Assembly (NCBI GenBank): GCA_039714075.1
Contig: JBDLKA010000083.1
Span: 1-16,252 of the forward strand
Length of the DNA: 16,252 nucleotides
Source: Candidatus Krumholzibacteriota bacterium
GTDB taxonomy: Bacteria > Krumholzibacteriota > Krumholzibacteriia > LZORAL124-64-63
Direction: 5' to 3'
This document shows, piece after piece, positions 1 through 15,743 of the stretch (the stretch's first letter is position 1; every line of letters starts with the position of its first letter). The notes under the pieces were generated by a model. The model had not been told where the DNA came from. It was given only the letters and a program-made list of their open reading frames with translations, and ran no database searches. Made by a program: the position numbers and the translations under genes.

Positions 1-38
1 AACCCCCCGAACCGGGGACGCTCTTTGCCCGGCCGACC

Positions 39-845
39 CTACCGATAGTACCCCAACGCTTCGGGCATGCGTTCGTTCAGTTCGCGGATGCGCGTGGCGT
101 CGGATGGATGCGTGGACATGAACTCGGGCGGTTTGCCCCCACCCCCCGCGGACATCCGTTCCCAGAATTTGGGCGCCTCGCGCGGATCGAACCCGGCCAT
201 CGCCATGAAGATCAGGCCCATGTGATCGGCTTCGCTTTCGTGCTTGCGGCTGTAGGGCAGCATGGCGCCGTACTGGGCGCCCACGGCGAAGGCCGACATG
301 TAGATGGCCTGCGTCTCCTGGGGCTTGGACTTGACGGCTTCGGACAGGGCCATCCCGCCCAGCTGCAGGGCCATCTGCTGGCTCATGCGTTCGCCGCCGT
401 GTTCGGCGATGGCGTGGGCGATCTCGTGGCCCATGACCACCGCGACCCCGACATCATCCCGGCAGATCGGCAGGATGCCTGTATAGAAGGCCACCTTGCC
501 GCCGGGCATGCACCAGGCATTGGCCTGGTCGCTTTCGATGAGGTTGAATTCCCAGTCGTAGCCCTTCAGATGGCTGGACATGCCGTTATCCCGGAAATAC
601 TTCTCCACCGCGCCCTGGATGCGCACGCCGACCCGCTTGATCATGGCCGTGGCCTCGGCGTCGGTGCTGAGCTGGCTTTCGGCGATCACCTGGTCGTACT
701 GCTGGAAACTCATGGCGTTCATTTCACTGTCTGAAATAAGGCTCAGCTGCTTGCGTCCGGTGATCGGCACCGTGGCGCAGGCCACCAGCAGGACGGCCGC
801 CAGCAGCAGGATGGGGGCGGATATCATTATTCTATTGCGAATCAT
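39..845 (-). CDS. M48 family Zn-metallopeptidase lipoprotein (LoiP/YggG/Oma1-like)
   Basis: HEIAH zinc motif, NAWCMPGGKVAFYTG, YSRKHESEADHMG and EFMSTHPS motifs, and a lipobox LVAC followed by ATVPITGRKQL. Start moved to ATG at 845 because GGAGG lies just upstream on the minus strand. Confidence 0.93.
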   Translation of the reverse strand: MIRNRIMISAPILLLAAVLLVACATVPITGRKQLSLISDSEMNAMSFQQYDQVIAESQLSTDAEATAMIKRVGVRIQGAVEKYFRDNGMSSHLKGYDWEFNLIESDQANAWCMPGGKVAFYTGILPICRDDVGVAVVMGHEIAHAIAEHGGERMSQQMALQLGGMALSEAVKSKPQETQAIYMSAFAVGAQYGAMLPYSRKHESEADHMGLIFMAMAGFDPREAPKFWERMSAGGGGKPPEFMSTHPSDATRIRELNERMPEALGYYR

Positions 846-995
846 TTCGTTTCCTCCGATTACGGTACGGATCAGCAACCTAACCTGTGCCCAATCAGTT
901 TAACGCCCCGCCCCCACCCTTGCAATCGGATGATGGCTGGCCTAATCTCCGGGCCATTGAAATGTCGCCCCCGGCCATCCACCCCCAGGAGACCC

Positions 996-2402
996 ATGCG
1001 CCGCCTTTCTCTTTTCATCCTGTTGCTGGCCACAGGAATGGCCCCACACGCCGCCGCCCAGGACAGCCACTACTGGGACAACCAGTACGGCACCAAGGGA
1101 GAGCTGCTCGGCGGCGTGGTGGTTGGCAGCCGCAGCGACTTGAGCGCCACCTTCTACAACCCGGGGTGGATCGCCCTGCACGTCGACCCTTCTCTCCTGT
1201 TGACCACCATGGCCGCGGAAGCCTACTCCATCAAGCTGAAGGACGGGTTGGACCGGAGCGACGATCCGTCCAGTTCCACCGTCACCACCTCTCCGGGATT
1301 TTTGGCGGGCCGGTTCACCACCGGCAAGCACAGCGACTGGCAGTGGGCCTATTCCTATCTCCAGAAGGTCAAGTTCGAGTTCGATGCCACCGGCATCAGG
1401 GTCGATGAAAGCACGGCTCCGCCGCCGCAGGGCAACTTCTGGTTTTCCGGGGAGGCGTTCCGCAAGGCCACGGCCAACGAATACTGGTACGGGGCCACCT
1501 TCTCCCGGAAGATCCGCCCCAATGTCGGTCTCGGTTTTACCCCCTATGTCGTGCAGCGGTCCATGAGTTCACGCATCCAGGTTGCCGCGCAGGGTCTGGA
1601 CGGTGCCGAAAATTTCGCCCAGGCCTACGGTGTGGACGAGTACGACTTCTGGCATGTGCGCCTGTTGGCCAAGATCGGCCTGGCCATGGAAAAAGGGAAC
1701 ATGTCCTACGGGGTGACCTTGACCACACCCAGCCTGGGACTGTTCGGCAGCGGAAACGTTTATACGACCAGCAGTGTTTCGGGACTGGACCAGGACCAGG
1801 ACGGCAATATCGACGATCCCTATCTTTCGGCCAATCTGCAGGAGGGTCTTTCCGCCACCTGGAAGTCCCCCATGTCCCTGGCCTTCGGCGCGTCCTGGAA
1901 AGCCCACGCCACCGGCTGGCATCTGACGGTGGAATGGTACAATGCCGTAAAGACACGCCCGGCCATGGAAGCGGACGACTTCCTGTCCCAGTCCGGATCA
2001 CCCGGACAGAAGGTGGCGAATACCTACAATCTGAATTTCGGGGCCAAAAGCCTGATCAATTTCGGTGTGGCCTTCGACCATGCCTTCTCCGAAAAATTTT
2101 CCCTGTACGGCGCCTTCCGGTCGGATTTTTCGTCCCTCCCCGACGTGGACGCGGACGATCTGCAGATCGCCAACTGGGATCTGTGGCACCTCAGCTCCGG
2201 GGCCTCGTTCACCTTTCTCAACATCGAGTTCACCGCGGGATTGCAATACAGTTTCGGATCCGGCGACAACGAGCGCTTCCTCAATTTCAACCAGGATGAA
2301 AACGGCGATGTCCTGGGGGATTTCGGGATACATGAAATCACCTACCGGCGCCTGAAGGCGCTGATAGGATTCAATATGCCTTTCGGTGAAACGTCGGGTT
2401 AG
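996..2402 (+). CDS. Outer-membrane beta-barrel of the OmpP1/FadL/TodX-like type
   Basis: Signal peptide MRRLSLFILLLATGMAPHAAA. The N-terminal hatch-like motif YGTKGELLGG...DLSATFYNPG resembles FadL G-R-GMGGA...DASA.YYNPA. Many alternating amphipathic strands. AGGAG RBS precedes ATG 996. Confidence 0.72.
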   Translation: MRRLSLFILLLATGMAPHAAAQDSHYWDNQYGTKGELLGGVVVGSRSDLSATFYNPGWIALHVDPSLLLTTMAAEAYSIKLKDGLDRSDDPSSSTVTTSPGFLAGRFTTGKHSDWQWAYSYLQKVKFEFDATGIRVDESTAPPPQGNFWFSGEAFRKATANEYWYGATFSRKIRPNVGLGFTPYVVQRSMSSRIQVAAQGLDGAENFAQAYGVDEYDFWHVRLLAKIGLAMEKGNMSYGVTLTTPSLGLFGSGNVYTTSSVSGLDQDQDGNIDDPYLSANLQEGLSATWKSPMSLAFGASWKAHATGWHLTVEWYNAVKTRPAMEADDFLSQSGSPGQKVANTYNLNFGAKSLINFGVAFDHAFSEKFSLYGAFRSDFSSLPDVDADDLQIANWDLWHLSSGASFTFLNIEFTAGLQYSFGSGDNERFLNFNQDENGDVLGDFGIHEITYRRLKALIGFNMPFGETSG

Positions 2403-2514
2403 ACCGCGGAAATTTTAGTTGGCCCGCGCCCGGGCCCTGGCGTAGGTTGTAGTCATTCAGTTCCCATCCGGTCCCCCGGGGCCGATCGTTTGCCTTTATT
2501 GCGGAGGTGTTCCC

Positions 2515-3069
2515 TTGTACAGCGCGCGAAACCTTTTCTCCGGACTGCTGGTTCTGGTTCTGCTGGCTTCGCTTGCCGGCTGCTCGAACCTGTCGGTCAA
2601 TTACGATTACGACCAGAACGTCGAGTGGTCCAAGTTCAAGACGTACGGCTGGATCGATGTTCCCCTGCAACCCTCCGACCCCACCGGCCCCCTGCAGGAT
2701 ACGGAATTGCTGCGTAAGCGCATCCACAACTCGGTCGCCTACGAGATGGAACAGCGCGGCATCGCCCCGGGCGACAACCCCGACCTGCTGTTGGTCTACC
2801 ACCTGGGAGCCAAGGAAAAGATCCAGGTCACCGATTGGGGTTACCGCTACTCCGACTATTACTGGGGATACGGGGGGCGGCAGATCGACGTCTACCAGTT
2901 CACCGAAGGCTCGCTGGTCCTCGATCTGATCGACGCGGAATCGAAAAGCCTGGTCTGGCGCGGTACCGGCACCGGCATCGTGGACCAGTCCAAGAGAACG
3001 CCCGAGGAAATGCAGGACCGGGCGGACAACGTCATCAACAAGATCATGGAAAGTTTCCCGCCGCACTAG
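2515..3069 (+). CDS. DUF4136 domain lipoprotein
   Basis: Lipobox LAGC, then DYDQNVEWSKFKTYGW, PDLLLVYH and EGSLVLDLIDAESKSLVWRGTG, typical of DUF4136. GGAGG at 2503-2507 precedes the TTG start. Confidence 0.88.
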   Translation: MYSARNLFSGLLVLVLLASLAGCSNLSVNYDYDQNVEWSKFKTYGWIDVPLQPSDPTGPLQDTELLRKRIHNSVAYEMEQRGIAPGDNPDLLLVYHLGAKEKIQVTDWGYRYSDYYWGYGGRQIDVYQFTEGSLVLDLIDAESKSLVWRGTGTGIVDQSKRTPEEMQDRADNVINKIMESFPPH

Positions 3070-3078
3070 CGGGCGGGT

Positions 3079-3096
3079 TCCCGTCAGGGGACGGGA
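3079..3096. terminator. Short hairpin between convergent DUF4136 and HDOD genes
   Basis: TCCCGTC-AGGG-GACGGGA perfect 7-bp stem in the 27-bp gap between two stop codons. No U-tract. Confidence 0.4.
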
Positions 3097-3990
3097 TCAT
3101 TCGGCGTAGTCCCGGAAGATCCCGTCCAGGCCCACCAGGTTCTGCCTGATGTCCCAGATGACCTGGCCCCACTTGTCCTCCGGCAAACCGATGAACTCCC
3201 CCATTTCCCGGAATTTTTCCCAGGGCACATCCTCGCTCAGATTGATGTCCTGCTTGCGGCCAAGACCCCAATGGGCGCAGATTTTTTCGGCCAGGCCCAA
3301 AACGGCCGCGCCGAGGTTCCAATCGCCCGCCTGCGTATAATCGTGATGATGCCTGACACAGGCCGTGATCGATTCCGGCAGATTCCACTGGTTCAGGATG
3401 TACTCCCCCAGCTCGGCGTGGTTCAGGCCCACGGCCGCGGTTTCGTCCCGGCGATCGACATGCTTTCCGTCCATCGGCGGCAGGAATTCATCGATGATCA
3501 ACTGGCCGACATCGTGCAACAGCCCGGCCACATAGGCTTCCTCGCTGCGCAGGGTACACTCCGGGGAGGCATCCACCAGCACCCGGCTGGTCTGGGCGAC
3601 GCCCAGGGAATGTCTCCAGAATCCCCTGTCCGGGTCGTAGTCGTAATTCAGCAGGGAACGTCGCGTCAGCCCCTCGGTGCTGACCGCGAACACGATTTTC
3701 TTCAGATTTACCAGGCCGATCAGGACCACCGCTTCGGGAATGGAATTGATGGAGCGCGAACGACCGTACAGCCCGCTGTTGGCCAGCTTCAACACCCGGG
3801 CCACCAGGGCCTGGTCCTTGCTGATGACCGCTTCGAAATCCCTGGCGGTGAAATATTCACGCTGGGACAGTTCCAGGAACTCGAGGACCACCGAATTCAG
3901 GCTCGGCAGGGTCTCCATTTTTTCCAGAACCTCGAACCTCAGGTTTCGCCACGGTCTTTCCGCAACAACCGGTGTCGAAGGAGCGTTCAT
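3097..3990 (-). CDS. HDOD domain signal-transduction protein
   Basis: LPSL, ISKDQALVARVLKLANSGLYG, SIPEAVVLIG, FWRHSLGVA, AGLLHDVG, NHAELGEYILNQWNLPESI and RHHH motifs. Confidence 0.92.
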   Translation of the reverse strand: MNAPSTPVVAERPWRNLRFEVLEKMETLPSLNSVVLEFLELSQREYFTARDFEAVISKDQALVARVLKLANSGLYGRSRSINSIPEAVVLIGLVNLKKIVFAVSTEGLTRRSLLNYDYDPDRGFWRHSLGVAQTSRVLVDASPECTLRSEEAYVAGLLHDVGQLIIDEFLPPMDGKHVDRRDETAAVGLNHAELGEYILNQWNLPESITACVRHHHDYTQAGDWNLGAAVLGLAEKICAHWGLGRKQDINLSEDVPWEKFREMGEFIGLPEDKWGQVIWDIRQNLVGLDGIFRDYAE

Positions 3991-4550
3991 TTGAATTCTC
4001 CGTTCGAGTCCACATCAAGGACGATTCCCACGTCGTCTCCGTCACAGGGATTGATGGTGCCGGGCCTGGCCCACAGCCGGCCCGGAAAGGTGTCCGATTT
4101 CCGGTTGGGCCCGGTGGACAACACGGCGATGGCCGTGTCCGTCATCATCACCAGGTAGGGCCGGCCCCAGGGATCGAGGGGAATGTCCTTGAGCCAGGAG
4201 CCGCCGGTAGCGGGGTGGCCGAGGGGAGATCCCGCATCGGAAAGACCCGCCGCCATGGTGGTGTTCGTCTTGTATCCGCCGGCCCGCCCTTCCAGGAGAA
4301 CCGTCAGATCGATGACCCCGTCGGAATTCCGCGGCCACCGCCCGGTATCGGCATGGTAATCCAGGACCGACCTGGCCAATTCCGTTGCTTCGGCCTTCGC
4401 CCTGACCGGGCGTTCCTCGGGAATCAGGCCGCTGAGGAGATTCCACGCCAGCAGCCCCGTTCCCGCCAAAAGGACAATTCCAAGAAGGCCCTGGAATCCC
4501 ATAAATGATTTTTTGAACACAGGTTTCCCCGTTTTTTGTCTGTTCCCCAA
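3987..4550 (-). CDS. Type II secretion GspG-like (T2SSG domain) membrane-anchored protein
   Basis: N-terminal hydrophobic helix, then L..Y..DTGRWP, WLKDIPLDPWGRPY, VLSTGPN and DDVG, all GspG C-domain motifs. Start uncertain: GTG 4550 or ATG 4502. Confidence 0.7.
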   Translation of the reverse strand: MGNRQKTGKPVFKKSFMGFQGLLGIVLLAGTGLLAWNLLSGLIPEERPVRAKAEATELARSVLDYHADTGRWPRNSDGVIDLTVLLEGRAGGYKTNTTMAAGLSDAGSPLGHPATGGSWLKDIPLDPWGRPYLVMMTDTAIAVLSTGPNRKSDTFPGRLWARPGTINPCDGDDVGIVLDVDSNGEFK

Positions 4551-4728
4551 CAGGATTAAAGGTCAATTCCGGCTTAAAATCCGGATCCAAGGGGTATTTC
4601 ACCCACCCCGGAGGTATGCAACCTCCGTTCCAGTCCCTGCGGCCGCGGGCCCGGAAAGGGGCAAAAACCATGAATTTGGCAATATTATGGGGCTGAAGAC
4701 GTTTTCACGGGGGGCCGGATTTTCTGGT

Positions 4729-5520
4729 TCAAACCTCTTTTTTGGGCAGGGTGCCGTCCAGGGCGTCCCGCAGAATGCCTTTGATCTCTTCGCTGAAGTC
4801 CTTGCCGAGCATCCATTCCAGGTAGCTGCGCCCGCGCTGATCGGCGACCACCGCGTTCAGGGATTTGCCCTGGAACTTGCCGAAGGTGAATTCGGCTTCG
4901 CCCTGGTCGTTCCACAGGAACTTGCGCTTGCGGTCCACGTAACGGCCCTCGTCGGGATTGCAGAAGCGGTGCAGGGCGCCGACCTCGTCCGGCACCTCGT
5001 CGTACCGGGCGATCTGGGCGTCGAGGATTTCCAGGGTGGCTTCGGTATCGGCCAGGGCGTTGTGGGCGCCGGTCAGATCCTTGCCGCAATAAAGCCTGTA
5101 GGCCGCGGTCAGGTCGCGCCGCTCCATGGCGTGGAAGATCTTCATGGCGTCCAGGTGCCGGACGCCGGGAAAATCCATTTCGCTGCCCGCGCGCTTCAGT
5201 TCCGCCTGGAGCAGGGGCATATCGAAATTGACCGAATTGAACCCGGCCAGATCCGCTTCGGCGAGATAGTCCTCCACCTCGCGACGGATCTGACTGAAGG
5301 TCGGTTTGTCCCGGACGTCGGCGTCCTTGATCCCGTGCACGGCCGAAGCCTCCGGCGGAATGGGCTGCTCGGGATTGACCAGGGTCTCGAAGGTGGTGCG
5401 GCTGCCGTCGGGATCGACCCGGATCATGGCGATCTGGACGACCCGGTCCTTCTCCACGTTGATGCCGGTGGTCTCCAGGTCGAACACCACCAGCGGGCGG
5501 GTGAGCTTCAGATTCTGCAT
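4729..5520 (-). CDS. DnaQ-like DEDDh 3'-5' exonuclease with C-terminal DUF3820-like domain
   Basis: ExoI VVFDLETTG, ExoII GFNSVNFD and ExoIII AHNALADT. C-terminal FTFGKFQGKSL...YLEWM. Confidence 0.9.
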   Translation of the reverse strand: MQNLKLTRPLVVFDLETTGINVEKDRVVQIAMIRVDPDGSRTTFETLVNPEQPIPPEASAVHGIKDADVRDKPTFSQIRREVEDYLAEADLAGFNSVNFDMPLLQAELKRAGSEMDFPGVRHLDAMKIFHAMERRDLTAAYRLYCGKDLTGAHNALADTEATLEILDAQIARYDEVPDEVGALHRFCNPDEGRYVDRKRKFLWNDQGEAEFTFGKFQGKSLNAVVADQRGRSYLEWMLGKDFSEEIKGILRDALDGTLPKKEV

Positions 5521-5546
5521 GACGGCCTCTCCCGGGGACTATGACA

Positions 5547-5578
5547 AGGAGCCTGCCTCCCGGTGGAAACAGGCTCCT
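5547..5578 (-). terminator. Hairpin downstream of ilvE (probable terminator or processing stem)
   Basis: Minus-strand AGGAGCCUGUUUCC-ACCG-GGAGGCAGGCUCCU, a 14-bp stem whose G-U pairs form only on the minus strand. Weak U tail (UGUCAU). Confidence 0.6.
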
Positions 5579-5604
5579 GGGAAAACCGACTGATCGACGG
5601 AGGA

Positions 5605-6678
5605 TCAGACGTTTTCTAACACGGGAACAACGTGCACCCACTCGGGATGGTGCTTGCTGTTCCCCGCGTGAATCCCGGTCAGTGTAACACGAAGCTTCTC
5701 CGTAAGCTCCCCTTCTTTTCCATTTGCGATCTGATGGTCGGCGCCCTTGAAGTGGATCACACCGACGGGAGTGACCACGGCCGCGGTGCCGCAGGCAAAG
5801 ACTTCCTTCAGCTTGCCGGTGTGGGCGTCTTCGCATACCTCGGCGATGTTGGGCGGATCTTCGACCCAGTTGTATCCCATGTCCTTCAAAAGGATGCCCA
5901 CCGAATCGCGCGTCACCCCGTTGAGGATGGTGTCGCCGGCGGCCGCCGTGATCACCTTGTCTTCGTAAACGAAGGCGATGTTCATGGCGCCCATTTCCTC
6001 GACGTACTTCCTCTCCTTGGCGTCCAGCCAGATGATGTTGTCGTAGCCGGCGTCCTGGGCCTGCTGGATGGGCAGAAGCGACGCCGAGTAGTTGCCGCCG
6101 GTCTTGGCGAAACCGGTGCCGCCTTCGACCGAGCGCACGAACTGCTCCTCGACGCGCAGCCGCAGGGGATTGATGCCCCCCGCAAAGTAGGACCCCACCG
6201 GCCCGATGATGATGTAGAAGATGTAGTCGGTCGAAGCCTTCACGCCCAGACCCGTCTGGGTCGCGATCATGGTCGGCCGGATGTACAGGGCGTTGGGACT
6301 TTCGGGCACCCATTCACGATCCAGATCGATGAGCTGGTCCAGCGCCCGGATGAACAGGTCCGGATCCACCTGGGGCATGCACATGCGCTCGCAGGAAATG
6401 TTGAATCTGGTCACGTTCTTGTCGGGGCGGAACATATGCACCGAACCGTCGTCACCGTTCTGGTAGGCCTTCATGCCCTCGAAGATTTCCTGGCCGTAGT
6501 GCAGCACCTTGGCCGCCGGATCGAGGCTGAAGTTGCCGTAGGGAATGATGCGCGGGTCGCGCCACTGCCCGTCGGAATAATCCATGACGAACATGTGCGG
6601 CGTGAAGATCTGGCCGAATCCGTAATCCCCGTCGGGGGGCGACTGGGGATTGGGGTTCCTGGTGATTGGAATGTTCAT
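5605..6678 (-). CDS. ilvE: Branched-chain amino acid aminotransferase (class IV PLP enzyme)
   Basis: FGQIFTPHM, LHYGQEIFEGMKAY, LYIRP, AKTGGNY (PLP Lys), EEMGAMN, ILNGVTRDS and EVFACGTAAVVTPV. GAGGAGG RBS precedes ATG 6678. Confidence 0.96.
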   Translation of the reverse strand: MNIPITRNPNPQSPPDGDYGFGQIFTPHMFVMDYSDGQWRDPRIIPYGNFSLDPAAKVLHYGQEIFEGMKAYQNGDDGSVHMFRPDKNVTRFNISCERMCMPQVDPDLFIRALDQLIDLDREWVPESPNALYIRPTMIATQTGLGVKASTDYIFYIIIGPVGSYFAGGINPLRLRVEEQFVRSVEGGTGFAKTGGNYSASLLPIQQAQDAGYDNIIWLDAKERKYVEEMGAMNIAFVYEDKVITAAAGDTILNGVTRDSVGILLKDMGYNWVEDPPNIAEVCEDAHTGKLKEVFACGTAAVVTPVGVIHFKGADHQIANGKEGELTEKLRVTLTGIHAGNSKHHPEWVHVVPVLENV

Positions 6679-6832
6679 CCCGTCCTCCTCCTGGCATTTC
6701 GGGCGGAAAGTGAAGGCCGCGGCCCCCGCCACGCCTCAAACCCGAAAAAGGTGTGAAATCACCCTGTATAGAGGGTTTTCATGCTTCAAATTTCGTCATT
6801 TGCGGTGATGAAAGCAAGAATTGGCGCTGGGT

Positions 6833-6876
6833 ATAAAAATACCCGGATGGCCTCTTCGCCCAAGAGACCATCCGGG
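6833..6876 (-). terminator. Intrinsic terminator closing the candidate sRNA
   Basis: CCCGGAUGGUCUCUU-GGGCG-AAGAGGCCAUCCGGG 15-bp stem followed by UAUUUUUAU. Confidence 0.82.
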
Positions 6877-6970
6877 CGGGGGGTGCGACGGAATCGGGTT
6901 CGCCCTTCCGACTCCGCCGCTTTTCAATCCGGCCCCTCGCTCTAAAAGCCGGATTTGGAGGTGTCGCTTG
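6833..6970 (-). ncRNA. Candidate sigma54-dependent small RNA (~138 nt, three stem-loops)
   Basis: Begins 12 nt after a GG-N10-GC promoter. Unpaired 5' CAAGCGACACCUCC, SL1 6955-6926, SL2 6920-6885, SL3 6876-6842, then UAUUUUUAU. Stem irregularities are G-U pairs on the minus strand. No credible ORF. Confidence 0.7.
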
Positions 6971-6980
6971 CCCTGAATAA

Positions 6981-6996
6981 TGCAAAGTTGGTGCCG
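6981..6996 (-). promoter_or_regulatory. Sigma54 (RpoN) -24/-12 promoter
   Basis: Minus strand CGGCACCAACTTTGCA versus consensus TGGCACG-N4-TTGCW, with exact GG-N10-GC spacing (GG 6995-6994, GC 6983-6982). Confidence 0.8.
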
Positions 6997-6997
6997 G

Positions 6998-7141
6998 ATT
7001 TATGGGACACACAGTAACCAACCATGACAAAACAACTTAAGGAATTCGGGCTGTTTTGGGGTCCATTATATTTCTTCTGAATGCCGCCAAAGTGTCCCAT
7101 AAATGTGTCCCGTTTTTGGGCAACCGTGGGACACCGGGACA
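6998..7141. promoter_or_regulatory. Putative enhancer (bEBP UAS) array and AT-rich bending segment
   Basis: Perfect 13-bp inverted repeat ATTTATGGGACAC (6998-7010) / GTGTCCCATAAAT (7092-7104). Further boxes are GTGTCCC 7105-7111, GGGACAC 7128-7134 and GGGACA 7136-7141. An AT-rich segment lies between, at about 7015-7080. Confidence 0.55.
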
Positions 7142-7443
7142 GCCCAAACCCGCCCGCCGAGGGACCTTACCGGGGGGCAGGGGAACTTTTTCCATCGCTC
7201 CGGGTATGGAAGCAGGACCGCAGGTTTTTCAGAAACCCGGTCCCGACATTTTTTCGTCAACCTCATTTTTTCCGGAACGGACGGCGGCAGAATTACCATA
7301 TGACCCCTTGTTAGCCCTACCGGTTCGAATCTCTTGGCAAAATTTTGATGATCTCCACAGTCCTCCCGGCCTACCCCTGGGGCCCGCGGCTGTTCACGAT
7401 CAATGCGAATCAGTGATTCAAGTCACCTTCCTAGGGGGTTGCC

Positions 7444-8166
7444 ATGTCGAAACCAAGGCTCTGCTTTATCCTTCCCGGTGTCCTTTTCATTCTGATGTTT
7501 CACGGTTTCCCGGACGGCGGCGGCCGGCTGCTGGCCCAGGAGGACTCCAATCTCGAAGTGGGCGGATCCCTTCCCTTGACCGAGGGGGAATCCGGTTGGT
7601 TCCCGGAACTGAATGTCCTGGACGCGCGGTTGGCTCTGTCCGCCCAGTACAACCACTTCACCGGCGAAGACATGCGTGATACCTATGGCGGGCTGCCGAT
7701 GATCGCCGCGGCCTTTTCTTTTCGGGCCTCCCGGTATTCGCGGGTCTTCGTTTCGGTCGGCTACGGCAAACAAACCGGAGACCCCTATTACAACACTCCC
7801 GGTATCAACGCCGAGGACCACATCAAGGTGCGTTACCTCCCCGTCCAGTGGGGCATGAAGGCCGATCTTGCCCGGAGCACCCGGATTCATGTCTACATCG
7901 GCGCCGCGGTGGAACTCGCCTGGATGGAAGAAACCATTCCCCTGCTCGGCAACGAGGGAACCGTGGCGGAAACGTCCTCGACCGGTATCAACGGCGGCTA
8001 CAACCTGACCTTCGGACCCGAATTCGTATTGGGACAGGGTGGCCGGGCCGTGGGCCTGGAAATCGGCTGGGGCGGGTCCAAGGGCAGCGTCACGACTCGA
8101 GGCCATTCTCACCAAATCGACATGACCGGATTCCGGGGGCGGTTGTATCTCGCCCTCGCGCTTTGA
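7444..8166 (+). CDS. Outer-membrane beta-barrel protein (small, OmpA/porin-like 8-strand type)
   Basis: Hydrophobic N-terminal signal. Alternating strands such as RVFVSVGY, IHVYIGAAVEL, GYNLTFGPEF and VGLEIGW, with final strand GFRGRLYLALAL. GGGGG RBS-like stretch. Confidence 0.65.
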   Translation: MSKPRLCFILPGVLFILMFHGFPDGGGRLLAQEDSNLEVGGSLPLTEGESGWFPELNVLDARLALSAQYNHFTGEDMRDTYGGLPMIAAAFSFRASRYSRVFVSVGYGKQTGDPYYNTPGINAEDHIKVRYLPVQWGMKADLARSTRIHVYIGAAVELAWMEETIPLLGNEGTVAETSSTGINGGYNLTFGPEFVLGQGGRAVGLEIGWGGSKGSVTTRGHSHQIDMTGFRGRLYLALAL

Positions 8167-8178
8167 GGAGGATGCACC

Positions 8179-9222
8179 ATGCGAAACTCGATTTATTCCC
8201 TGCTGACAGTCCTGGCCGTCCTGGCCGCCCTGGTGCTGATCCCCCCCCCGATGGTTTACGCCGACGGCGGGTTCTTATTCCCCCAGGATGCGTTCATGTA
8301 CGAACCGGTGCAGCGGGCGCTCATCGACTACGACAGTGAGAACCACACGGAGCACCTCAGCATCCAACCCGGGTTCAGGGGTGACGCCAGGGCTTTTGCC
8401 TGGATTGTCCCGGTGCCCAATCTGCCTGAATTGACCTTGGCCGACAAACAGCTCTTTTGGGATCTCGACGCCCTGACCCGGCCGGTCCACCGCTCCCGGG
8501 ACGGTGACTGGGACTGTTGGGGAAACCGGGGAATCTACAGCCCCGATTACGCGGATGGTGGATTCGAAATCCACTCCTCCCAGCTGGTGGGTTACTACCA
8601 GACCCTGGTGCTGTCGGCCACCGAGGCGCCGGAACTGCTGGAATTCCTGACGACGCTGGGATTCCTGCACGAGGACAACCTGGAATCCGCCACCACGATC
8701 ATCAACGACTATGTGGAGCGGTCGTGGTACTTCGTCGCCATGCAGGTGGACAGCACGGCCCTGGCGGAAATCAACCCGGGCGGCTACTACGGCTACTATT
8801 CCGGAAATTTGGATCCCATCAGGCTGGCCTTTGCTTCGGACGAAATCATCTATCCCATGAAAATCTCGGCCATGAGCGCCGCCGATGTATCGACGGTCCA
8901 CCTTTACGTGAAGACGGACCACCGCATGACCTTTTCCGGCGCGAGCACCCACTACGCCAACCGCTTTTCTGCCGGAGAGCTCAATGAGCTTTCCCGGTTC
9001 ACGAGCTTGCGTTCGATTTTTCAACCGGGGGATTTCCTGACCAAACTGCAGCGCGGTTATCTTCCCGAGCAGATGGTTGAAGACATCATCCTGGCGCAGG
9101 CCGCCACCGATGACGAATTCCACCTGATCATTTACGGCGGCTTTCCCTGGACCGGAATCCTGTTGATTTCAATGCCGGTCGCCGTGGCTCTCAAGAGGCG
9201 GTTTTGGATCAGAAGGGAGTAG
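8179..9222 (+). CDS. DUF2330 domain protein with signal peptide and C-terminal TM anchor
   Basis: YADGG after the signal peptide, QRALIDYD...EHLSIQPGFRG, FAWIVPVPNLP, LFWDLDALTRP, YVERSWYFVAM, LDPIRLAFASDEIIYPMKIS. C-terminal TM followed by KRR. GAGGAGG RBS in the 12-bp gap after the barrel gene. Confidence 0.8.
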   Translation: MRNSIYSLLTVLAVLAALVLIPPPMVYADGGFLFPQDAFMYEPVQRALIDYDSENHTEHLSIQPGFRGDARAFAWIVPVPNLPELTLADKQLFWDLDALTRPVHRSRDGDWDCWGNRGIYSPDYADGGFEIHSSQLVGYYQTLVLSATEAPELLEFLTTLGFLHEDNLESATTIINDYVERSWYFVAMQVDSTALAEINPGGYYGYYSGNLDPIRLAFASDEIIYPMKISAMSAADVSTVHLYVKTDHRMTFSGASTHYANRFSAGELNELSRFTSLRSIFQPGDFLTKLQRGYLPEQMVEDIILAQAATDDEFHLIIYGGFPWTGILLISMPVAVALKRRFWIRRE

Positions 9223-9320
9223 GCCGGTTTCCGGCGGGAGGGTATGGCCGAACCCGCCAAGTCTTCATATGCTGAATTTTGGGGGTCGTCGGTAGGTGTT
9301 ATCTGGCGAAGGGATTGATA

Positions 9321-10616
9321 ATGGACCGACGCCCCCCGTCCCCGAAATTATTCAGCGCCGTCCCGGCTCCGCCGGTGATGCTGCTGCCCCTGCTGCTGAT
9401 AGTCTTCCTGCTGGCCGGTTGCAGCGACGACGACGCCGTCGTCGAGGTGATTCCTCCGGCCGGCCCCGCCCCCGTTCTCGCTGCCGAGCCCGAATTCTCC
9501 CCGGGGCTTTCGAACACCGTTTCCTGGTCCCTGCCCGAGGGTGAGAAAGCCGGTGACCTGGAGTTTCTCGTCCAGCGGTCCGGCGATCCCCTGTTCGACG
9601 CGGAGGTGGTGGAAAGCGGTTGGATTGCCGAGTCGTCCTTCGAGTTCACCGGCCTGGAACACGCCTCGACCCATCATTTCCGGGTCCGCGGCCGCAATCC
9701 GCAGGGAGCCAAAACCGAATGGTCGTCCAGCCAGGCATCCACCCAGGACGCGGTTCCTCCGGTCGCCGCACTGACGGAGATGAAAGCGGAACAGACCAGC
9801 CTTTTGTTCACCTTCGAGCTGTCCGCGACCGACCAGGATAGCGGGGTCGAGGAAATCGAGCTCTGGTTCGGACTGGAAGGCGCCGAAGCCGAGCTTTACG
9901 GGGTATTCCCTCCCGGCCAGGTTTCCTTTCAGGCGACCGGGGGGGGAATCCACGAGTTCATTCCCCTGGCCGTTGACGTGGCCGGCAACCGGCAGGACTT
10001 GGCCGCCGCCACCGTCCAGGAGACGATTGTGCCCGAGCCCATCATCATCACCGACAGGCGCGGGGAAGACTTCGACATCACCGCGGCGGTGCTGGAATAC
10101 CGCATGGGCGAAACCTTCTGGGAGTTCGGGCTGGGCCGCTACACGATCCGGCCCATCATCGACCCCCTGATGGTCGGTCCAGGCCATCACGCATACCCGG
10201 ACGAAAACGCCATCACCCCGATCCTGGGCGTCAAGTACGATGACGATATTCGCGCCTACAAGATCGGCGACATGATGAACAGGGAGGTGGTCGACGACGT
10301 CGTCAACGGCATTCCCATTGCCGTCTGCTACTGACCTCTCTGCGATTCGGTTGTGGTCTACAACCGCGTACTCGACGGAGAAACCCTGACGATCGCCGCC
10401 AGCGGCTGGACCTGGCATCAGATCTTCGTGCTGCAGGATTATGAAACGGGAAGCCTGTGGTTCCCCGGCCTGTCCTTTCCCGGAGGCACGGATTTCCTGC
10501 TCTGCGTCGCGGGTCCCCACCAGGGTCGAAAACTGTGGGCCAGGGACTCGGCCCGCGTCACCTGGAAAGGCTGGCATTCGTTCTACCCTAATTCCCTCAT
10601 CATGCACACGAAGTAG
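9321..10616 (+). CDS. Lipoprotein with FN3 + Ig-like stalk and C-terminal DUF3179 domain; predicted selenoprotein (TGA 10332-10334 = Sec)
   Basis: ORFs 9279..10334 and 10353..10616 share a frame and read ...REVVDDVVNGIPIAVCY-(TGA)-PLCDSVVVYNRVLDGETLTIAASGW...FVLQDYETGSLW, matching the DUF3179 pattern YCPLC..A..YDR....L.F.vSG....LVM.D.ET.SLW. A SECIS hairpin follows the TGA. Lipobox LAGC (Cys 9420-9422). Alternative start ATG 9378. Confidence 0.85.
10341..10370 (+). promoter_or_regulatory. Bacterial SECIS element
   Basis: UGCG(AUU)CGGUUGU-GGUCU-ACAACCG-CGUA hairpin. The G-starting apical loop begins 21 nt after the UGA. It closely resembles the E. coli fdhF SECIS core GGUUGCAGGUCUGCACC. Confidence 0.8.
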
Positions 10617-10622
10617 CCCGCC

Positions 10623-10655
10623 GCCGCCGGGCCCTCGCGCCCGGCGGCTCTTTTT
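10623..10655 (+). terminator. Intrinsic terminator after the DUF3179 selenoprotein gene
   Basis: GCCGCCGGGC-CCTCGC-GCCCGGCGGC 10-bp stem followed by TCTTTTT, just after TAG at 10614-10616. Confidence 0.82.
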
Positions 10656-10675
10656 ACCCTAACCCGTTTTATACG

Positions 10676-10704
10676 TTGCGGTTGGGGTTTTTCTGTGATA
10701 TCCT
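10676..10704 (+). promoter_or_regulatory. Putative sigma70-type promoter of the kinase gene
   Basis: TTGCGG-17 bp-TATCCT with an extended TG, located just downstream of the terminator. Confidence 0.5.
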
Positions 10705-10787
10705 GATCAACGAGGGAGCCAAGTTTCGCCCGAAACCGATGGTCACGTATATCCACGGAACTGCTGATGATTGGGACCGGGGGCCTC

Positions 10788-13379
10788 ATGCAGGAACGGA
10801 TGGTATCCCACTACAAGATTCTCGAATGCCTGGGTGGCGGGGCCATGGGCCAGGTATTCAAGGCCGAAGACACCCTCCTGCACCGACCCGTCGCGCTGAA
10901 ATTCCTGCCCGCCGAGCTGACCGAAGACGAGGAGGCCTCCCGGCGCTTCATGCGCGAGGCCCGGGCCACATCCTCACTGGACCATCCCAACATCTGCGCC
11001 ATCCACGAAATTGCCCAGGCCGACGACGGCTCCTGGTACATCGCCATGGCCTGGTACGAGGGCCGGAACCTGAAAAAGGTGTTGAGCCGGGGCGCCCTCC
11101 CTCCCGAGCAGGCCCTGAGTTACGCCCGGCAGACGGCTCTCGGTCTGGGCGATGCCCATGACCATGGCGTGATCCACCGCGACATCAAACCGGCCAACCT
11201 CATCGTCACCGACCGGGACGACGTGAAGATCCTCGATTTCGGGCTGGCCCGGCTTCTGGGCAAGGCCCGCCTGACCAGGACCGGCACGGTGATGGGTACG
11301 GCGGCCTACATGTCCCCCGAACAGGCGCGCGGCGAGGACGTGGGCACCAGTTCGGACATCTGGTCCCTGGGGGTCGTGCTCTACGAAATGCTTTCGGGGC
11401 AGGTGCCGTTCGACGGCGACAGCGATGTGGCCATGATCTATTCGGTGCTGCACTCGGACCCGGCTCCCCTACCCCAGCCGGTGTGCCGGAACAGCAAGAT
11501 CTGCACGGACATCATCCATAACTGCCTGGCCCGCGATCCGGGGGACCGCTACCCTTCGGCCCATGTCCTGGCCGACGACATCGAGTCGGCCATGGAGGGT
11601 TCCAAGACGTCGTTCGGCAGCAAGCCTTCGGGCTCCTCCATTTTCGCCCCTCCCGGCCGGCCCCGCTGGCACCGGTTACTGCCCGCCCTTGTCGCCCTGG
11701 TGCTGTTGTTGGCCCTGGCCTTCCCGCAATCGCGCAGCTTCCTGCGCTCGATCGTTCCTTTCGCCTCCGGGCCGCGACCGGTCGGCGTGGCCGTGATTCC
11801 CTTCCACCTTACCGGGGATGTGGACGACGCCACGGCCTTCGGCCTGGGATTGAGCAACACGATCAACGACCGGCTGGCCGGACTGGAACAGCATTCCGGC
11901 CGGTTCTGGGTCGTGCCCGCGGGGGAAGTCAAGCGACGACAGGTCGTGGATGACGACAGGGCGCAGACGGTTCTGGGAGTCCAGCAGATCATCACCGGCA
12001 CGGGGAATCTGAGCGGCAAAACCATCAACCTGACCTTGACCGTTCACGACACCCGGGACAATTCCTACCAATCCAAGGTATTCCGGGATTTCTCCGGCAA
12101 CCTGAAAATCTGGCAAAGCGACCTGCTGTCCTGGCTGGCGGGAATCATCGATCCTGAACTGGAAGCGGTTCCGGACAGGTTTACCGGCGCCCAGAACACA
12201 ACCATTCCTTCTGCGTTTCTTGCTTATCAGCGCGGATTCGGCCATCTGGCGGAAGCTTCCGCCGGCCCCGACGACGAGCACACCGTAGCCGCCCTGCCGT
12301 ATCTGGAGCGGGCCGTGGCCAACGACTCTTCCTTTTCCTGCGCCTGGACCCAGCTGGGCCGGGCGGTTTTCTTCAGGTATGGACCCGCCGATTCGGTCAG
12401 GGTTTCCGAGGCCGAGGCCTACCTGGCCACCGCCGTCCGGCTGGACAGCACCGCCGTGTGGCCCCACCACTACCTGGGCACTCTCCGGGCCCGGCTCGGC
12501 GATACCGACGCCGCCCTGGGTGAATACCGCCGGGCCCTGGCCCTGGATCCCCGGCACGCGCCGACCCTGAACAGCCTGGCCAATATGTATTACTGGAACG
12601 GGGAAGAAAAACGCGCCGAAGCCGCCTTTGATCGGGCCATTGACGCCCGCCCATATTATCCGCGGGCCCACAGGAATGCCGGAGCGTTTCACTACCAACG
12701 GGAGGACATGGAAAAAGCACGGGAGAATTTCCAAGCCATGGTCGAATTGGTCCCGGACGACGAACTAGGCTATCGAATGCTGGGGATCATCTACTACGGA
12801 GAGGATGATTACGAGAACGCGGAAACCATGTTCAAGCGTTCCCTGGCCCTCAAGGAAACCAATGGAACCTACGCGAACCTGGGCACACTTTATTATTATG
12901 ACCAGCGGTACACCGACAGCATCGTCATGTCCCAAAAAGCCCTGGAACTGGGGCCCGACGACTTTGATACCTGGCGCACCCTGGCCGCCGCCTACTATTT
13001 CGCCCCCGGTTTCGAGGATTCGGTGCGTCCGGCCTATGAAAAAGCCATGGAACTGCTCCGGGTCGAAATGGCCCTGTATCCTGAGAACCCCGGTTTTAAA
13101 GCGGATCAAGCGTCTTTCTACCATAAGCTGGGAGAACCCGAGACCGCCCTGGCGATCCTGTCCGATCTGGAAACCAATCATTCCGACCTGGATCCCTGGA
13201 TCATGTTCAGCATGGCTTCCACCTATGAAGAGCTCGGCGACCGCGACCGGGCCCTGGACTGGCTGGAGAATGCCCTGGAAAGGGAACTTTCATTCAAGAG
13301 GGTGGAACGCTATCCGGTTCTGAAAAACCTGCAGTCGCATCCGCGGTATATCGCTTTGCGAAAAAAGTATGAGCAGTAG
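10788..13379 (+). CDS. Hanks-type Ser/Thr protein kinase with TM helix, TolB_N-like domain and TPR repeats
   Basis: LGGGAMGQV, VALKFL, HRDIKPAN, DFGLA, GTAAYMSPEQ and SDIWSLG. TM LLPALVALVLLLALAF, then VAVIPF, then multiple TPRs. Start ATG 10788 (10767 also possible). Confidence 0.95.
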   Translation: MQERMVSHYKILECLGGGAMGQVFKAEDTLLHRPVALKFLPAELTEDEEASRRFMREARATSSLDHPNICAIHEIAQADDGSWYIAMAWYEGRNLKKVLSRGALPPEQALSYARQTALGLGDAHDHGVIHRDIKPANLIVTDRDDVKILDFGLARLLGKARLTRTGTVMGTAAYMSPEQARGEDVGTSSDIWSLGVVLYEMLSGQVPFDGDSDVAMIYSVLHSDPAPLPQPVCRNSKICTDIIHNCLARDPGDRYPSAHVLADDIESAMEGSKTSFGSKPSGSSIFAPPGRPRWHRLLPALVALVLLLALAFPQSRSFLRSIVPFASGPRPVGVAVIPFHLTGDVDDATAFGLGLSNTINDRLAGLEQHSGRFWVVPAGEVKRRQVVDDDRAQTVLGVQQIITGTGNLSGKTINLTLTVHDTRDNSYQSKVFRDFSGNLKIWQSDLLSWLAGIIDPELEAVPDRFTGAQNTTIPSAFLAYQRGFGHLAEASAGPDDEHTVAALPYLERAVANDSSFSCAWTQLGRAVFFRYGPADSVRVSEAEAYLATAVRLDSTAVWPHHYLGTLRARLGDTDAALGEYRRALALDPRHAPTLNSLANMYYWNGEEKRAEAAFDRAIDARPYYPRAHRNAGAFHYQREDMEKARENFQAMVELVPDDELGYRMLGIIYYGEDDYENAETMFKRSLALKETNGTYANLGTLYYYDQRYTDSIVMSQKALELGPDDFDTWRTLAAAYYFAPGFEDSVRPAYEKAMELLRVEMALYPENPGFKADQASFYHKLGEPETALAILSDLETNHSDLDPWIMFSMASTYEELGDRDRALDWLENALERELSFKRVERYPVLKNLQSHPRYIALRKKYEQ

Positions 13380-13425
13380 GCGGCTCGCTGCGGCGGGTCA
13401 TTAATTGAAGAGAGGGAGGAATGAT

Positions 13426-13881
13426 ATGAGTCCGAAAAAGATCAGACCCTACTACAAAGAGAACAACCAATCCTCAGATCCGAAAAAAGTTTACAAGGTC
13501 GATGTTTCCCCCCAGCAAGTGGAAGCTGGTGAAACCGTCGAAATCCTGATCAACTGCGAAAAGGGATTCTCTGTCTACATTCCCTATGAGGGGGTGTTCA
13601 ACGCCCAGGTCTTCGAGGCGGAGAAAAACCCGCTCTGGGCTGTGGACGAGGACGAGAAAAAGACGAAGGCCGAACTGCAGGCCGCTTCCGGAAGTGGCGA
13701 TAGCGATGCCGAAGGCGCCACCCTCGAAGCGTCCAAGGAGACGTTGTGGGGGGTCCGCATGACCCGAATCGCCAAAGAGAACGAGTCCCCCGTGGATGAA
13801 ATGCCGTATTGCATCCACAGCAAGGATCTCAACAACTTCGCCGTGGCGAATTCCCCTCCGGTGATGGGTTTGAAACCCTGA
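13426..13881 (+). CDS. Hypothetical protein (151 aa) downstream of the kinase
   Basis: Strong GGGAGGA RBS before ATG 13426, protein-like composition, and a terminator follows. Confidence 0.75.
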   Translation: MSPKKIRPYYKENNQSSDPKKVYKVDVSPQQVEAGETVEILINCEKGFSVYIPYEGVFNAQVFEAEKNPLWAVDEDEKKTKAELQAASGSGDSDAEGATLEASKETLWGVRMTRIAKENESPVDEMPYCIHSKDLNNFAVANSPPVMGLKP

Positions 13882-13898
13882 TCAAGGCCTGGACAGAC

Positions 13899-13936
13899 CA
13901 ACGCCCCCGCGCCTGACGGCTTCGGGGGCGTTGTTT
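13899..13936 (+). terminator. Terminator hairpin between convergent genes
   Basis: CAACGCCCCCG...GCC-TGAC-GGC...CGGGGGCGTTG followed by TTT. May act in both directions. Confidence 0.7.
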
Positions 13937-13955
13937 CCTGCGGCGGCTTGGAGCG

Positions 13956-15743
13956 TTATTCCACCAGGGTGATCGAACGCGTCCGGACGACTGTCTCGCC
14001 ACCCATCCGCACCATCATCCGCACCTGATAGACACCCGAGGCTACCTGGCGGCCGGCACGGTCGGTGCCGTCCCACATGGCGTTGAAGGGGCCGGTCTCG
14101 AAATGACCGGAAACCAACCCGCGCACCAGGTGCCCGCGCGCGTCGTAGATGTTCAGCTCCACGGCGCCGGGCCGGTCCAGTTCGAACCTGATTTCGGTGG
14201 ACGGATTGAAAGGATTCGGAATGTTGGGCATGAGCCGGGCGTCGCCGGCCGTCGGCGTCTGCGGTACCGGCGACAGCGGGTTGAACACCGTGAAGTCGGC
14301 CACCCTGGGAGCATGATCGCTGGCGTCGGTGGTATCGTATTGCTGGAGTCCGTGGGCGGCCAGATTCGCCGGGGTCATGGTCCGGGTTTCCAGAACGTAG
14401 TGGTTGTGCAGATCGAGCACGCTGTCGGTGTACATGACATAGTCCAGCACTCCGGGGTAGTAGGTGCTGAAATCGTTGCGCCAGGTGTAGCCGGCCCGGA
14501 AGTCGGGCTGCCGGGACAGAGGATTGATAAAGTTGGAGCCGTCCCAGTCCGGCGCCGCGTCGGCCCCGTAGGTTCCCTCGTCCTGGATGTCACCGGTGAT
14601 GATGGTGTCCAACTGCTGCCGCCAGCCGACGAGATTCAGATCGCCGCACAGGACAAAAGGCGTGCCTTCGGGCACCGTGACCACGCCGCCTGCGGTTTTG
14701 GCGTCGCGCAGGAAGCCGATCACCGAGTCGGCTTCGTTCTGCCGGTCCTGGTCGGCGGTGCAGCAGCGCCAGTGGTTGGCGATCAGCAGCAGGTCCTTGT
14801 CCGAGACCGCGCCCAGGTCGAGCAGGGCCGCGGTCACCCGGTAGCCCGGATTCACTTCCCAGCTCTGTAGGATGGGATAGCGGCTGACGATGACGTTGCC
14901 CGCGTCACGCATGACCGCGTACCAGTCTTCGCCGGCCCCGCTGGGAAGATGCTGCTCGATCATGTCGCGCACTTCGGTCGCGTTGTGGTACCACACTTCG
15001 TTCACCACGACCACGTCGGGGTCCATGGCGTCGAGCATCCGGTTCTGGGCCGACTCCGCCGAGCCGCCATCGAACAGGCCGTCGCTTTGCACGTTCCAGG
15101 TGGCGATGCGGATGTGGGCGGGATCATCGCGCGTCAGCGCCAGACCGGGTGTGGCGATGGAACCGGCCGTGAAGGTGTAGGCGATGCTGCCCGAGTTCGG
15201 CGCCACGTCGCCCGAGTCGGTATCATAAAAAATGAACCTGATGTCGCCGCCGTTGAAAAGGGCCTGCCCTCCGGCCGGAATCGCGTCCCGGCGAAAAGCC
15301 ACCTCGAATTCCGTGTTGCTGACGGTGGGTCCAATCATCAACCCGACATCGGCGTGCTCCACCGTGTAGGTGCTCCCGGGCTTGAAGGTGCCCTCGCGCC
15401 AGCCGAATTCCCACATCAGCTCGGCGCCGATCCCATTGAAGGACGTCCCCGTACCGGCGTTCATGTCGGTGTCGATATAGAGCCGCATGTTCTGCTGCTC
15501 GTCCGGCTGGACATTGCCTTCGGTTTCGAACCGGATGTAGAGATAGTCCTGGTCGTTGGCCACCCAGATCCGGCCGAAATCCACGGTTCCCGAATCGTCG
15601 TTCGAGTCGTCGTGGACAGCGGTCAGGCCCGCCCAGTCGTCAAAATTGCCATCCAGGTGGATGGGTTCCAGATTGGCCAGGGCAAACCCGGGCACCAGCA
15701 GGCAGAACAAGGCACAGGCGATAATTCGGGAGGAGATGGACAC
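13956..15743 (-). CDS. Secreted endonuclease/exonuclease/phosphatase (EEP) protein with N-terminal DOMON/CBM9-like domain and C-terminal FlgD-Ig/secretion-signal-like domain
   Basis: Signal peptide; LDGNFDDW...WVANDQDYLYIRF...LYIDTD; EEP motifs ATWNV, DVVVVNE, GDLN, LDY and SDH; C-terminal PNPFNPSTEIRF...IYDARG...WDGTDRAGRQVASGVY. GTG start. Confidence 0.85.
   Translation of the reverse strand: MSISSRIIACALFCLLVPGFALANLEPIHLDGNFDDWAGLTAVHDDSNDDSGTVDFGRIWVANDQDYLYIRFETEGNVQPDEQQNMRLYIDTDMNAGTGTSFNGIGAELMWEFGWREGTFKPGSTYTVEHADVGLMIGPTVSNTEFEVAFRRDAIPAGGQALFNGGDIRFIFYDTDSGDVAPNSGSIAYTFTAGSIATPGLALTRDDPAHIRIATWNVQSDGLFDGGSAESAQNRMLDAMDPDVVVVNEVWYHNATEVRDMIEQHLPSGAGEDWYAVMRDAGNVIVSRYPILQSWEVNPGYRVTAALLDLGAVSDKDLLLIANHWRCCTADQDRQNEADSVIGFLRDAKTAGGVVTVPEGTPFVLCGDLNLVGWRQQLDTIITGDIQDEGTYGADAAPDWDGSNFINPLSRQPDFRAGYTWRNDFSTYYPGVLDYVMYTDSVLDLHNHYVLETRTMTPANLAAHGLQQYDTTDASDHAPRVADFTVFNPLSPVPQTPTAGDARLMPNIPNPFNPSTEIRFELDRPGAVELNIYDARGHLVRGLVSGHFETGPFNAMWDGTDRAGRQVASGVYQVRMMVRMGGETVVRTRSITLVE

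Follow-up and report, generated by a model that had tools for sequence, protein, structure and literature searches.

What is encoded in the gap between ilvE and the divergent gene upstream of it on a contig of Candidatus Krumholzibacteriota bacterium, how would it be controlled, and what could it do? The window analyzed here, 16,252 nt in length, is contig JBDLKA010000083.1 of GenBank assembly GCA_039714075.1 (positions 1 to 16,252), and an earlier note, made from its letters, had read positions 6833-6996 as a minus-strand small RNA gene with a sigma-54 promoter, three hairpins and an exposed anti-Shine-Dalgarno 5' end. Re-reading the sequence bore out this minus-strand reading. Comparison with the window's own assembly (G000; 4.06 Mb, 92% complete) and with relatives leads us to regard as real a new small-RNA family with a putative dedicated sigma-54 activator and enhancer (Table 1).

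Structure and conservation of the RNA

The minimum free energy and centroid folds of the minus strand over 6833-6972 gave the same three hairpins (stem-loops SL1, SL2 and SL3) at -72 kcal/mol (z = -4.61), with none of 200 shuffles as stable, while the plus-strand fold was weaker (-61.1 kcal/mol, z = -2.57). This is the architecture that the earlier note had drawn. Reading 3' of the promoter, the order is CAAGCGACACCUCC, SL1, GAAAA, SL2, ACCCCCC, SL3 and the U-tract, and a terminator scan called SL3 and its T-run as a minus-strand intrinsic terminator, which is the role first proposed for it and is conserved in relatives. For covariation, 44 sequences were fitted to a covariance model, a procedure that favors pairing; in this alignment standard pairs filled 95.2% of 1599 cells, where shuffles averaged 81.6% and slid controls gave 26-55%. 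Both sides had changed in 27 of the 37 base pairs, with such double changes present in all three stems (compensatory change in 8 of 11 core pairs of SL2 and 12 of 14 pairs of SL3), and none of 500 shuffles attained any of the five covariation measures. An independent MAFFT/RNAalifold alignment of 10 sequences arrived at these three helices too, 13 of their 37 pairs being compensatory, so the stems, first drawn from a single sequence, are conserved with covariation among the homologues. The argument that irregularities in the stems are G-U pairs on the minus strand, and would be A-C mismatches on the other, also holds among the 44 relatives: 23 of them have U-G at pair 27/43 and 20 at pair 28/42, 18 have G-U at pair 67/88, and because such pairs are frequent the minus strand is fixed. 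A coding reading is unlikely, since the RNA ranges from 127 to 152 nt among homologues by increments not divisible by three.

The 341-nt region occurs once in the assembly, where the remaining matches are at most 24 nt long with E of at least 0.05; a multicopy element of the repetitive extragenic palindromic (REP) or miniature inverted-repeat transposable element (MITE) kind, against which the earlier note had set its reading, is thereby ruled out. Within the genus, BLAST found homologues in six of the seven other genomes, and beyond it in three genera. A covariance model (R1) built from 10 sequences matched 46 of 91 family genomes, one match per genome, 44 of them strong (68-160 bits) and two weak (G055 and G092). 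The strong matches are spread over 9 genera, all-or-none within each genus, and a phylum sample of 151 genomes had no strong match outside the family, the weak ones there being 30.9 bits (G137) and 24.5 bits (G109). Rfam 15 gave no match over the window at gathering thresholds, and at E up to 10 the region 6500-7500 had chance-level matches only, the best sub-threshold one being RgsA, which scored 14.9 bits (threshold 88.4) and lay on the wrong strand; the suspicion that this RNA belonged to no recognized family has thus held. On such comparative grounds the minus strand carries the gene of a structured RNA, present in one copy and conserved.

Some variants were seen along the way. The genome G099 (locus L196) lacks SL3 and the promoter boxes of ilvE, and its sigma-54 unit runs into ilvE; G055 (L203), G092 (L204) and G056 (L268) have divergent two-hairpin versions upstream of ilvE, which retain GCGAGG and GGGCGAA/GGGCAAA loops and show no clear CCUCC. 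G093 (7% contamination) has two identical, equally scoring RNA copies, on contigs C62 and C235, probably an assembly or binning duplicate. A search of a public genome collection with the pattern GAGCGAGGG-N24-32-GGGCGAAC was discarded as unspecific: it hit at least 120 loci, most of them by chance in GC-rich genomes, and when 100 of these were scanned with the model (L138-L157 left out) only L049 proved a true match.

A predicted sigma-54 promoter and a position-conserved enhancer array

The -24/-12 element keeps GG-N10-GC with TGC at -12 in 43 of the 43 loci with upstream sequence, 20-27 nt 5' of the RNA-model start, so that the promoter named in the earlier note is conserved at a fixed distance; counting from the C of the -12 GC at 6982 predicts +1 at ~6970. 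By itself the pattern does not reach significance when one sequence is considered: GGCAYN5TTGCW has an expectation of 0.15 per window, 29 of 200 shuffles contained at least one match, and the assembly has 26 strict matches. The case therefore depends on comparison with relatives, and it is because the promoter, the enhancer and the stems are conserved in them that the promoter rises above chance. The rpoN gene, whose presence had been left to be confirmed, is there (one Sigma54_DBD match, 214 bits), along with 17 strong Sigma54_activat matches.

Upstream of this promoter lie four half-sites, at -146 and -138 (TGTCCC) and at -116 and -103 (GGGACAC) relative to the -24 GG. The enhancer zone contains two or more exact half-sites in 38 of 43 loci, the other five having degenerate forms, and a half-site at -14 or -13, in either orientation, is found in 26 of 43. 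An A/T-rich stretch between this array and the promoter may be a DNA-bending site of the IHF/HU type. Taken together, the predicted promoter and the array have the standard layout of an activator-dependent promoter. Within 200 nt upstream of the 26 strict promoters of the assembly there are five half-sites here and 0 or 1 elsewhere, and control of the RNA gene by a sigma-54 activator is, in our judgment, well supported in silico.

A candidate activator on another contig

Only two intergenic places in the assembly hold five half-sites in 170 nt, namely the RNA locus and a place on contig C115, where the cluster lies ~125-175 nt upstream of a sigma-54-type promoter, TGGCACTTCTCCTGCA, and an activator gene (P0001) is next. 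The control by an enhancer-binding protein that the earlier note had supposed has thus gained both a position-conserved array and a candidate cognate activator. The palindrome GGGACATGTCCC is present four times in the assembly, three times within coding frames and once at the activator gene. One other half-site cluster, on C16, was rejected as a terminator palindrome only; C16:48915-48945 is a perfect palindromic terminator, AAAAAGAGGTGTCCCCGGGGACACCTCTTTTT, with the same heptamers as the enhancer, and is probably unrelated to the activator.

P0001 has Sigma54_activat, AAA lid and HTH_8 domains and a GAFTGA loop. Its N-terminal domain of 130 residues had no Pfam match, and Foldseek returned nothing at E <= 0.001; the predicted model, with a predicted local distance difference test score (pLDDT) >87 over residues 1-130, gave Z of 9.4-9.8 to the GAF domains of Aquifex Nlh1 and Nlh2 and 8.7 to that of NifA, and we provisionally take the fold to be GAF-like. 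Of 30 orthologue loci of the activator gene, 19 show two or more half-sites in the 330 nt before the gene, and 18 have a sigma-54-type promoter match upstream. Orthologues of the sensor domain (E <= 5e-42) are found in 39 of the 91 family genomes, and 38 of these 39 are RNA-positive, the next best match in any other genome being at 7e-29; in the exception, G002, the contig breaks off 169 nt upstream of ilvE, at the place expected for the RNA. IlvE identity is 73-91% in the RNA-positive genera vs 61-74% in others, and the RNA-positive genera probably form one clade. The rare enhancer motif shared with the activator gene is a stronger argument than this co-occurrence. It would seem that the C115 protein probably autoregulates positively and is a self-activating, ligand-sensing activator, whose regulon in the assembly appears to comprise only two promoters, that of the RNA and its own.

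No activator or kinase gene stands beside the RNA in any neighborhood type examined, and the upstream neighbors are unrelated to one another (an EamA transporter, a hydrolase, DUF4440 or a gene with no Pfam match). In the window the divergent upstream neighbor, 7444-8166 on the plus strand, belongs to no Pfam family and is separated from the enhancer by 280 nt; a DUF2330 gene lies at 8179-9222 on the plus strand.

Table 1. Features of the small RNA locus, of ilvE and of the candidate activator gene; positions are those of the window unless a contig is named.
Feature	Position	Strand	Basis
Small RNA gene, ~136-138 nt, ends predicted	6833..6970	-	model R1, 155.7 bits; 44 homologues
Sigma-54 type -24/-12 promoter CGGCACCAACTTTGCA	6981..6996	-	GG-N10-GC, TGC at -12; kept in 43/43 loci
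Upstream activating sequence: TGTCCC-GG-TGTCCC, 16 nt, GGGACAC, 6 nt, GGGACAC	7093..7141	-	promoter-anchored alignment
Fifth half-site GTGTCCC, promoter-proximal, 14 nt 5' of the -24 GG	7003..7009	-	upstream alignment
A/T-rich stretch with recurrent TAAC/TAAG..TTG	7020..7060	-	by eye, promoter-anchored alignment
RNA 5' end CAAGCGACACCUCC, unpaired	5' of SL1	-	fold
Unpaired CACCUCC, anti-Shine-Dalgarno core; CCUCC = nt 10-14	6957..6963	-	fold; CCUCC in 39/44, CUCC in 42/44
SL1, loop motif AGCGAGGG	6926..6955	-	fold; motif in 43/44
SL2, loop motif GGGCGAAC	6885..6920	-	fold; motif in 40/44, 43/44 including GGGYGARC
C-rich linker ACCCCCC, unpaired	6878..6884	-	fold; run of at least 4 C in 39/44
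SL3 terminator hairpin (6841-6877), loop GGGCGAA, then U-tract	6833..6877	-	fold, terminator scan
Promoter-like boxes of ilvE, TTGCTTTC ... GACGAAATTTG, downstream of the small RNA terminator	6787..6817	-	promoter function inferred
ilvE, class IV aminotransferase	5605..6678	-	ATG at 6678; Shine-Dalgarno sequence AGGAGGAGGA at 6683-6692
Candidate activator gene P0001, 503 amino acids	G000 C115 ~8700-10450 (L227)	-	own promoter TGGCACTTCTCCTGCA, five half-sites including GGGACATGTCCC

A possible anti-Shine-Dalgarno mode of action

What such an RNA might do is hinted at by its single-stranded parts. The unpaired CACCUCC, which the earlier note had equated with the core of the anti-Shine-Dalgarno sequence, matches the 3' end of the 16S rRNA of the assembly, GGATCACCTCCTTTCT (terminal ...CACCUCCUU / ...GGAUCACCUCCUUUCU), and the seed is conserved in relatives, with CCUCC at the same nucleotides in 39 of 44. 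Ahead of long frames, Shine-Dalgarno (SD)-like words are most frequent between -14 and -9 relative to the first ATG, reaching up to 8% per position over a background of ~1%, and because of this peak the lineage can be taken to use SD-led initiation. The unpaired parts of the RNA are also its C-rich parts, i.e. the CCUCC tail and the linker between SL2 and SL3, and the most economical mechanism, and a plausible one, would be the masking of SD sequences.

The structure of the RNA, its conservation, the promoter, the enhancer and the motif common to the RNA locus and the activator gene are seen in silico, and from them we infer transcription, the identity of the activator, action in trans and the targets. 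It can be hypothesized that an activator with a GAF-like, an AAA+ and a helix-turn-helix domain, for which the C115 protein is the candidate and which would probably sense a ligand, binds the TGTCCC/GGGACA array ~100-150 bp upstream and contacts sigma-54 RNA polymerase at the -24/-12 promoter, giving a ~137-nt transcript that ends at SL3. The same activator would also switch on its own gene. The RNA would most likely act in trans, its 5' CCUCC and C-rich linker pairing with the purine-rich SD regions of selected mRNAs, and this pairing would block translation initiation, while the three hairpins could give stability and the GRGCGA loops a contact to a protein or within a tertiary structure. 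An independent small RNA gene, driven by sigma-54 and its activator and most likely directed in trans against SD sequences, is the best explanation as a whole, and we would give it an even chance of being right.

A number of observations weigh against it. CCUCC is absent in 5 of the 44 homologues, two of which (L195 and L202) are without even CUCC, and there is no obvious CCUCC in the divergent two-hairpin relatives G092 and G056. Moreover, CCUCC could pair with any strong SD sequence, and so CCUCC alone provides no specificity. Target prediction in the assembly, by exact complementarity, by GGAGGYGYC at start codons and by RNAduplex over 10,217 candidate start regions, singled out no target, the sites being mostly internal and having no common theme; a protein of unknown family, a Peptidase_S74-domain protein and an M3 oligopeptidase are three plausible targets. 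Hfq was not found in the assembly at its 92% completeness. The seed is less well conserved than the loops, and pairing with SD sequences leaves the loops unexplained. The adjacency of ilvE in 40 of 44 loci suggests a functional tie for which an RNA acting in trans has no need. On the side of the activator, folds of the roadblock/LC7 (LAMTOR) type tie with GAF at equal Z for the N-terminus of P0001, and no more than one exact half-site is present at 11 of the 30 orthologue loci, of which two offer just 114-186 nt upstream of the gene and most of the others belong to genus g39. Six RNA-positive genomes (66-91% complete) are without a strong activator match, and the co-occurrence of RNA and activator is weak evidence alone because the RNA-positive genera probably form one clade.

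Four genes in the assembly (C30:8313, C38:8721, C69:8939 and C123:9827) share the ribosome-binding site (RBS) region AGGAGGCGTCATG, which is one base short of a perfect match to the seed; they encode proteins of ~340-420 amino acids with signal-peptide-like N-termini and may be paralogues.

Alternative readings

The main rival is protein titration. The best-conserved parts of the RNA are its three loops, kept in 41-43 of 44 homologues, above the CCUCC seed, and the G-R-GCGA-R common to all three hairpins points to a shared ligand, in the form of a protein or of a tertiary or kissing contact that is repeated. The same sigma-54-driven RNA could then be a decoy or sponge, its three near-identical G-R-GCGA-R loops titrating an RNA-binding protein, which we consider possible, if doubtful. 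The loops have the top conservation (AGCGAGGG in 43/44, GGGYGARC in 43/44, RGCGA in 41/44), that of SL3 is conserved although terminator loops normally drift, and the two-hairpin variants keep the loops and lose the seed. Candidate binders exist in the assembly in the form of one CsrA and three proteins with RNA recognition motifs (RRM), and a recent paper predicts that few CsrAs of Krumholzibacteriota have the canonical function (PMC13443453). By inspection, however, there is no conserved GGA in the loops, so this would not be a canonical CsrA sponge; CsrA occurs in 86 of the 91 family genomes irrespective of the RNA, which gives no co-occurrence signal, three sites are few for a sponge, and the binding partner is still only hypothetical. 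A CsrA or RRM protein with non-canonical specificity is one possibility for that partner. At a similarly low level of belief stands the fuller picture of a three-site decoy of an unrecognized RNA-binding regulator, placed under a metabolite-sensing GAF-type activator with a regulon of, it appears, only two promoters in the assembly.

Next comes the possibility that the element is a cis part of ilvE control, whether as a conditional leader that works by read-through or interference or as an RNA whose main target is the RBS of ilvE. This seems to us improbable. It is true that in 40 of 44 loci the gene 3' of the RNA is ilvE, in the same orientation, whereas the neighbors on the upstream side form at least five unrelated arrangements, and that the divergent variants too sit upstream of ilvE; the SD sequence of ilvE, AGGAGGAGGA, is strong, and in G099, without SL3 and the ilvE box, the sigma-54 unit is continuous into ilvE. 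Yet the 16-bp GC-rich terminator and its U-tract are conserved and the folds contain no alternative antiterminator pairing. Also, ilvE has a conserved box of its own. The forms conserved between the terminator and ilvE are TTGAYTTC and (G/C)ACGAWWT, the former resembling the TTG/TAnnTTTG promoter consensus of Bacteroidota and Chlorobi, and a TTG-type box (TTGAYTT) recurs upstream of ilvE in 19 loci from RNA-less genera; none of these 19 has the enhancer cluster, and only G056 has a sigma-54 promoter and then hairpins. The RNA is intact at four loci away from ilvE, where it scores 92-123 bits (in three genomes of genus g3 another, convergent gene follows the RNA, and in G100 ilvE is 1.4 kb off). 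Pairing with the start region of ilvE is by inspection limited to a generic GGAGG, there is no leader peptide, and the hairpins stand in a row rather than forming a junction-type aptamer. An obligatory leader is thus disfavored, the RNA unit looking rather like an add-on before an ilvE that is sufficient by itself; the tight linkage of the two may reflect some cis contribution. In the leader of ilvE itself (6700-6790, minus strand), GATTTCACACC and a T-run come after a small conserved hairpin, ACCC..loop..GGGT. This hairpin was found in the window's genus and several others, downstream of the promoter-like boxes, and may be a separate cis element.

Finally, that the region is non-functional, i.e. 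a repeat element or a bidirectional terminator with chance structure and a fortuitous promoter match, can appeal to the promoter pattern, which alone reaches no significance against shuffled sequence, and is hardly credible for an RNA that is single-copy in the assembly, that is conserved in 9 genera and shows compensatory change in each of its three stems, whose promoter and enhancer are conserved in position and whose upstream gene is divergent, leaving the hairpins nothing to terminate.

Relation to known systems

Small RNAs driven by sigma-54 and an activator are familiar from Qrr1-5 with LuxO, GlmY with GlrR, CrcZ with CbrB and NrsZ with NtrC, and the RNA described here would be a further example of this established type. 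It was not identified with Qrr, GlmY/GlmZ, CrcZ, RsmY/Z, RgsA or any other Rfam 15 family, none of which scored at its gathering threshold. The GlrR sites are TGTC-N10-GACA, and Qrr needs Hfq. As in the Qrr and GlmY systems, an activator and sigma-54 would drive a small RNA as the chief output of a signaling pathway, and the TGTC/GACA cores resemble the GlrR sites; unlike in those systems there is no Rfam match, the spacing of half-sites differs and Hfq was not found in the assembly.

CrcZ of Pseudomonas, which depends on sigma-54 and an activator, titrates a protein, Hfq, through repeated motifs, and RsmY/Z titrate RsmA. A repeated motif is present here as well, in three loop copies, which recalls CrcZ/CbrB, whereas the motif is GRGCGA and not the A-rich or GGA motif of CrcZ and RsmY/Z. 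Membership in the class of small RNAs that titrate CsrA/RsmA was rejected, since there is no conserved GGA and the loops are AGCGAGGG, GGGCGAAC and RGCGA instead. The C-rich anti-SD small RNAs RsaE/RoxS of Firmicutes have other promoters and often carry their C-rich motifs in loops; they share with the present RNA unpaired C-rich tracts suited to SD pairing (CCUCC and CCCCCC), which here lie in the 5' tail and the linker.

Another parallel is the Pxr RNA of Myxococcus, for which three stem-loops and a sigma-54 promoter are predicted and whose enhancer region adjoins pxrR (PMC5684412). The pair Pxr/PxrR (Nla19) of M. xanthus and our RNA have in common the three stem-loops, the sigma-54 promoter with an enhancer and the restriction to one clade (PMC5684412). 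They differ in that pxr lies directly 3' of its NtrC-like response regulator gene, while there is no adjacent activator here, and the candidate activator is GAF-like rather than of the receiver-domain kind. The host is non-myxobacterial and of another phylum, and the loops are invariant in our family, not only SL1/SL2. An identity with Pxr was rejected by neighborhood and host rather than by sequence, there being no activator or kinase gene of the pxrR or pxrK kind beside the RNA in the neighborhood types examined and the host not being myxobacterial.

Comparative genomics of Desulfovibrio vulgaris, in which regulons were predicted from shared upstream sites together with a -24/-12 promoter, gave a sigma-54 regulome with four non-coding RNAs, one of them the sole listed target of the single-component activator DVU2359 (PMC4641369). 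This resembles the situation proposed here, in which a dedicated activator would have a non-coding RNA as its regulon. The phylum is again another, and the D. vulgaris non-coding RNAs adjoin their activator genes, unlike the RNA here, whose candidate activator is unlinked and of the GAF type.

Significance

We know of no cultured, genetically tractable member of Krumholzibacteriota, and no small RNA of the phylum was found described in the parts of the literature naming it that we covered. The locus is nevertheless a complete, testable module of sensor-activator, enhancer motif, promoter and structured RNA output, and comparative genomics has defined these parts well enough for the module to be rebuilt in a heterologous host. 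With it there is more reason to see, in a small RNA controlled by a sigma-54 activator of its own, a design that recurs across distant phyla. The conserved loop motif, present three times, could indicate an unknown RNA-protein partnership, and if the RNA is a decoy, a metabolite-sensing activator of the GAF type would, through sigma-54, govern a circuit of protein titration.

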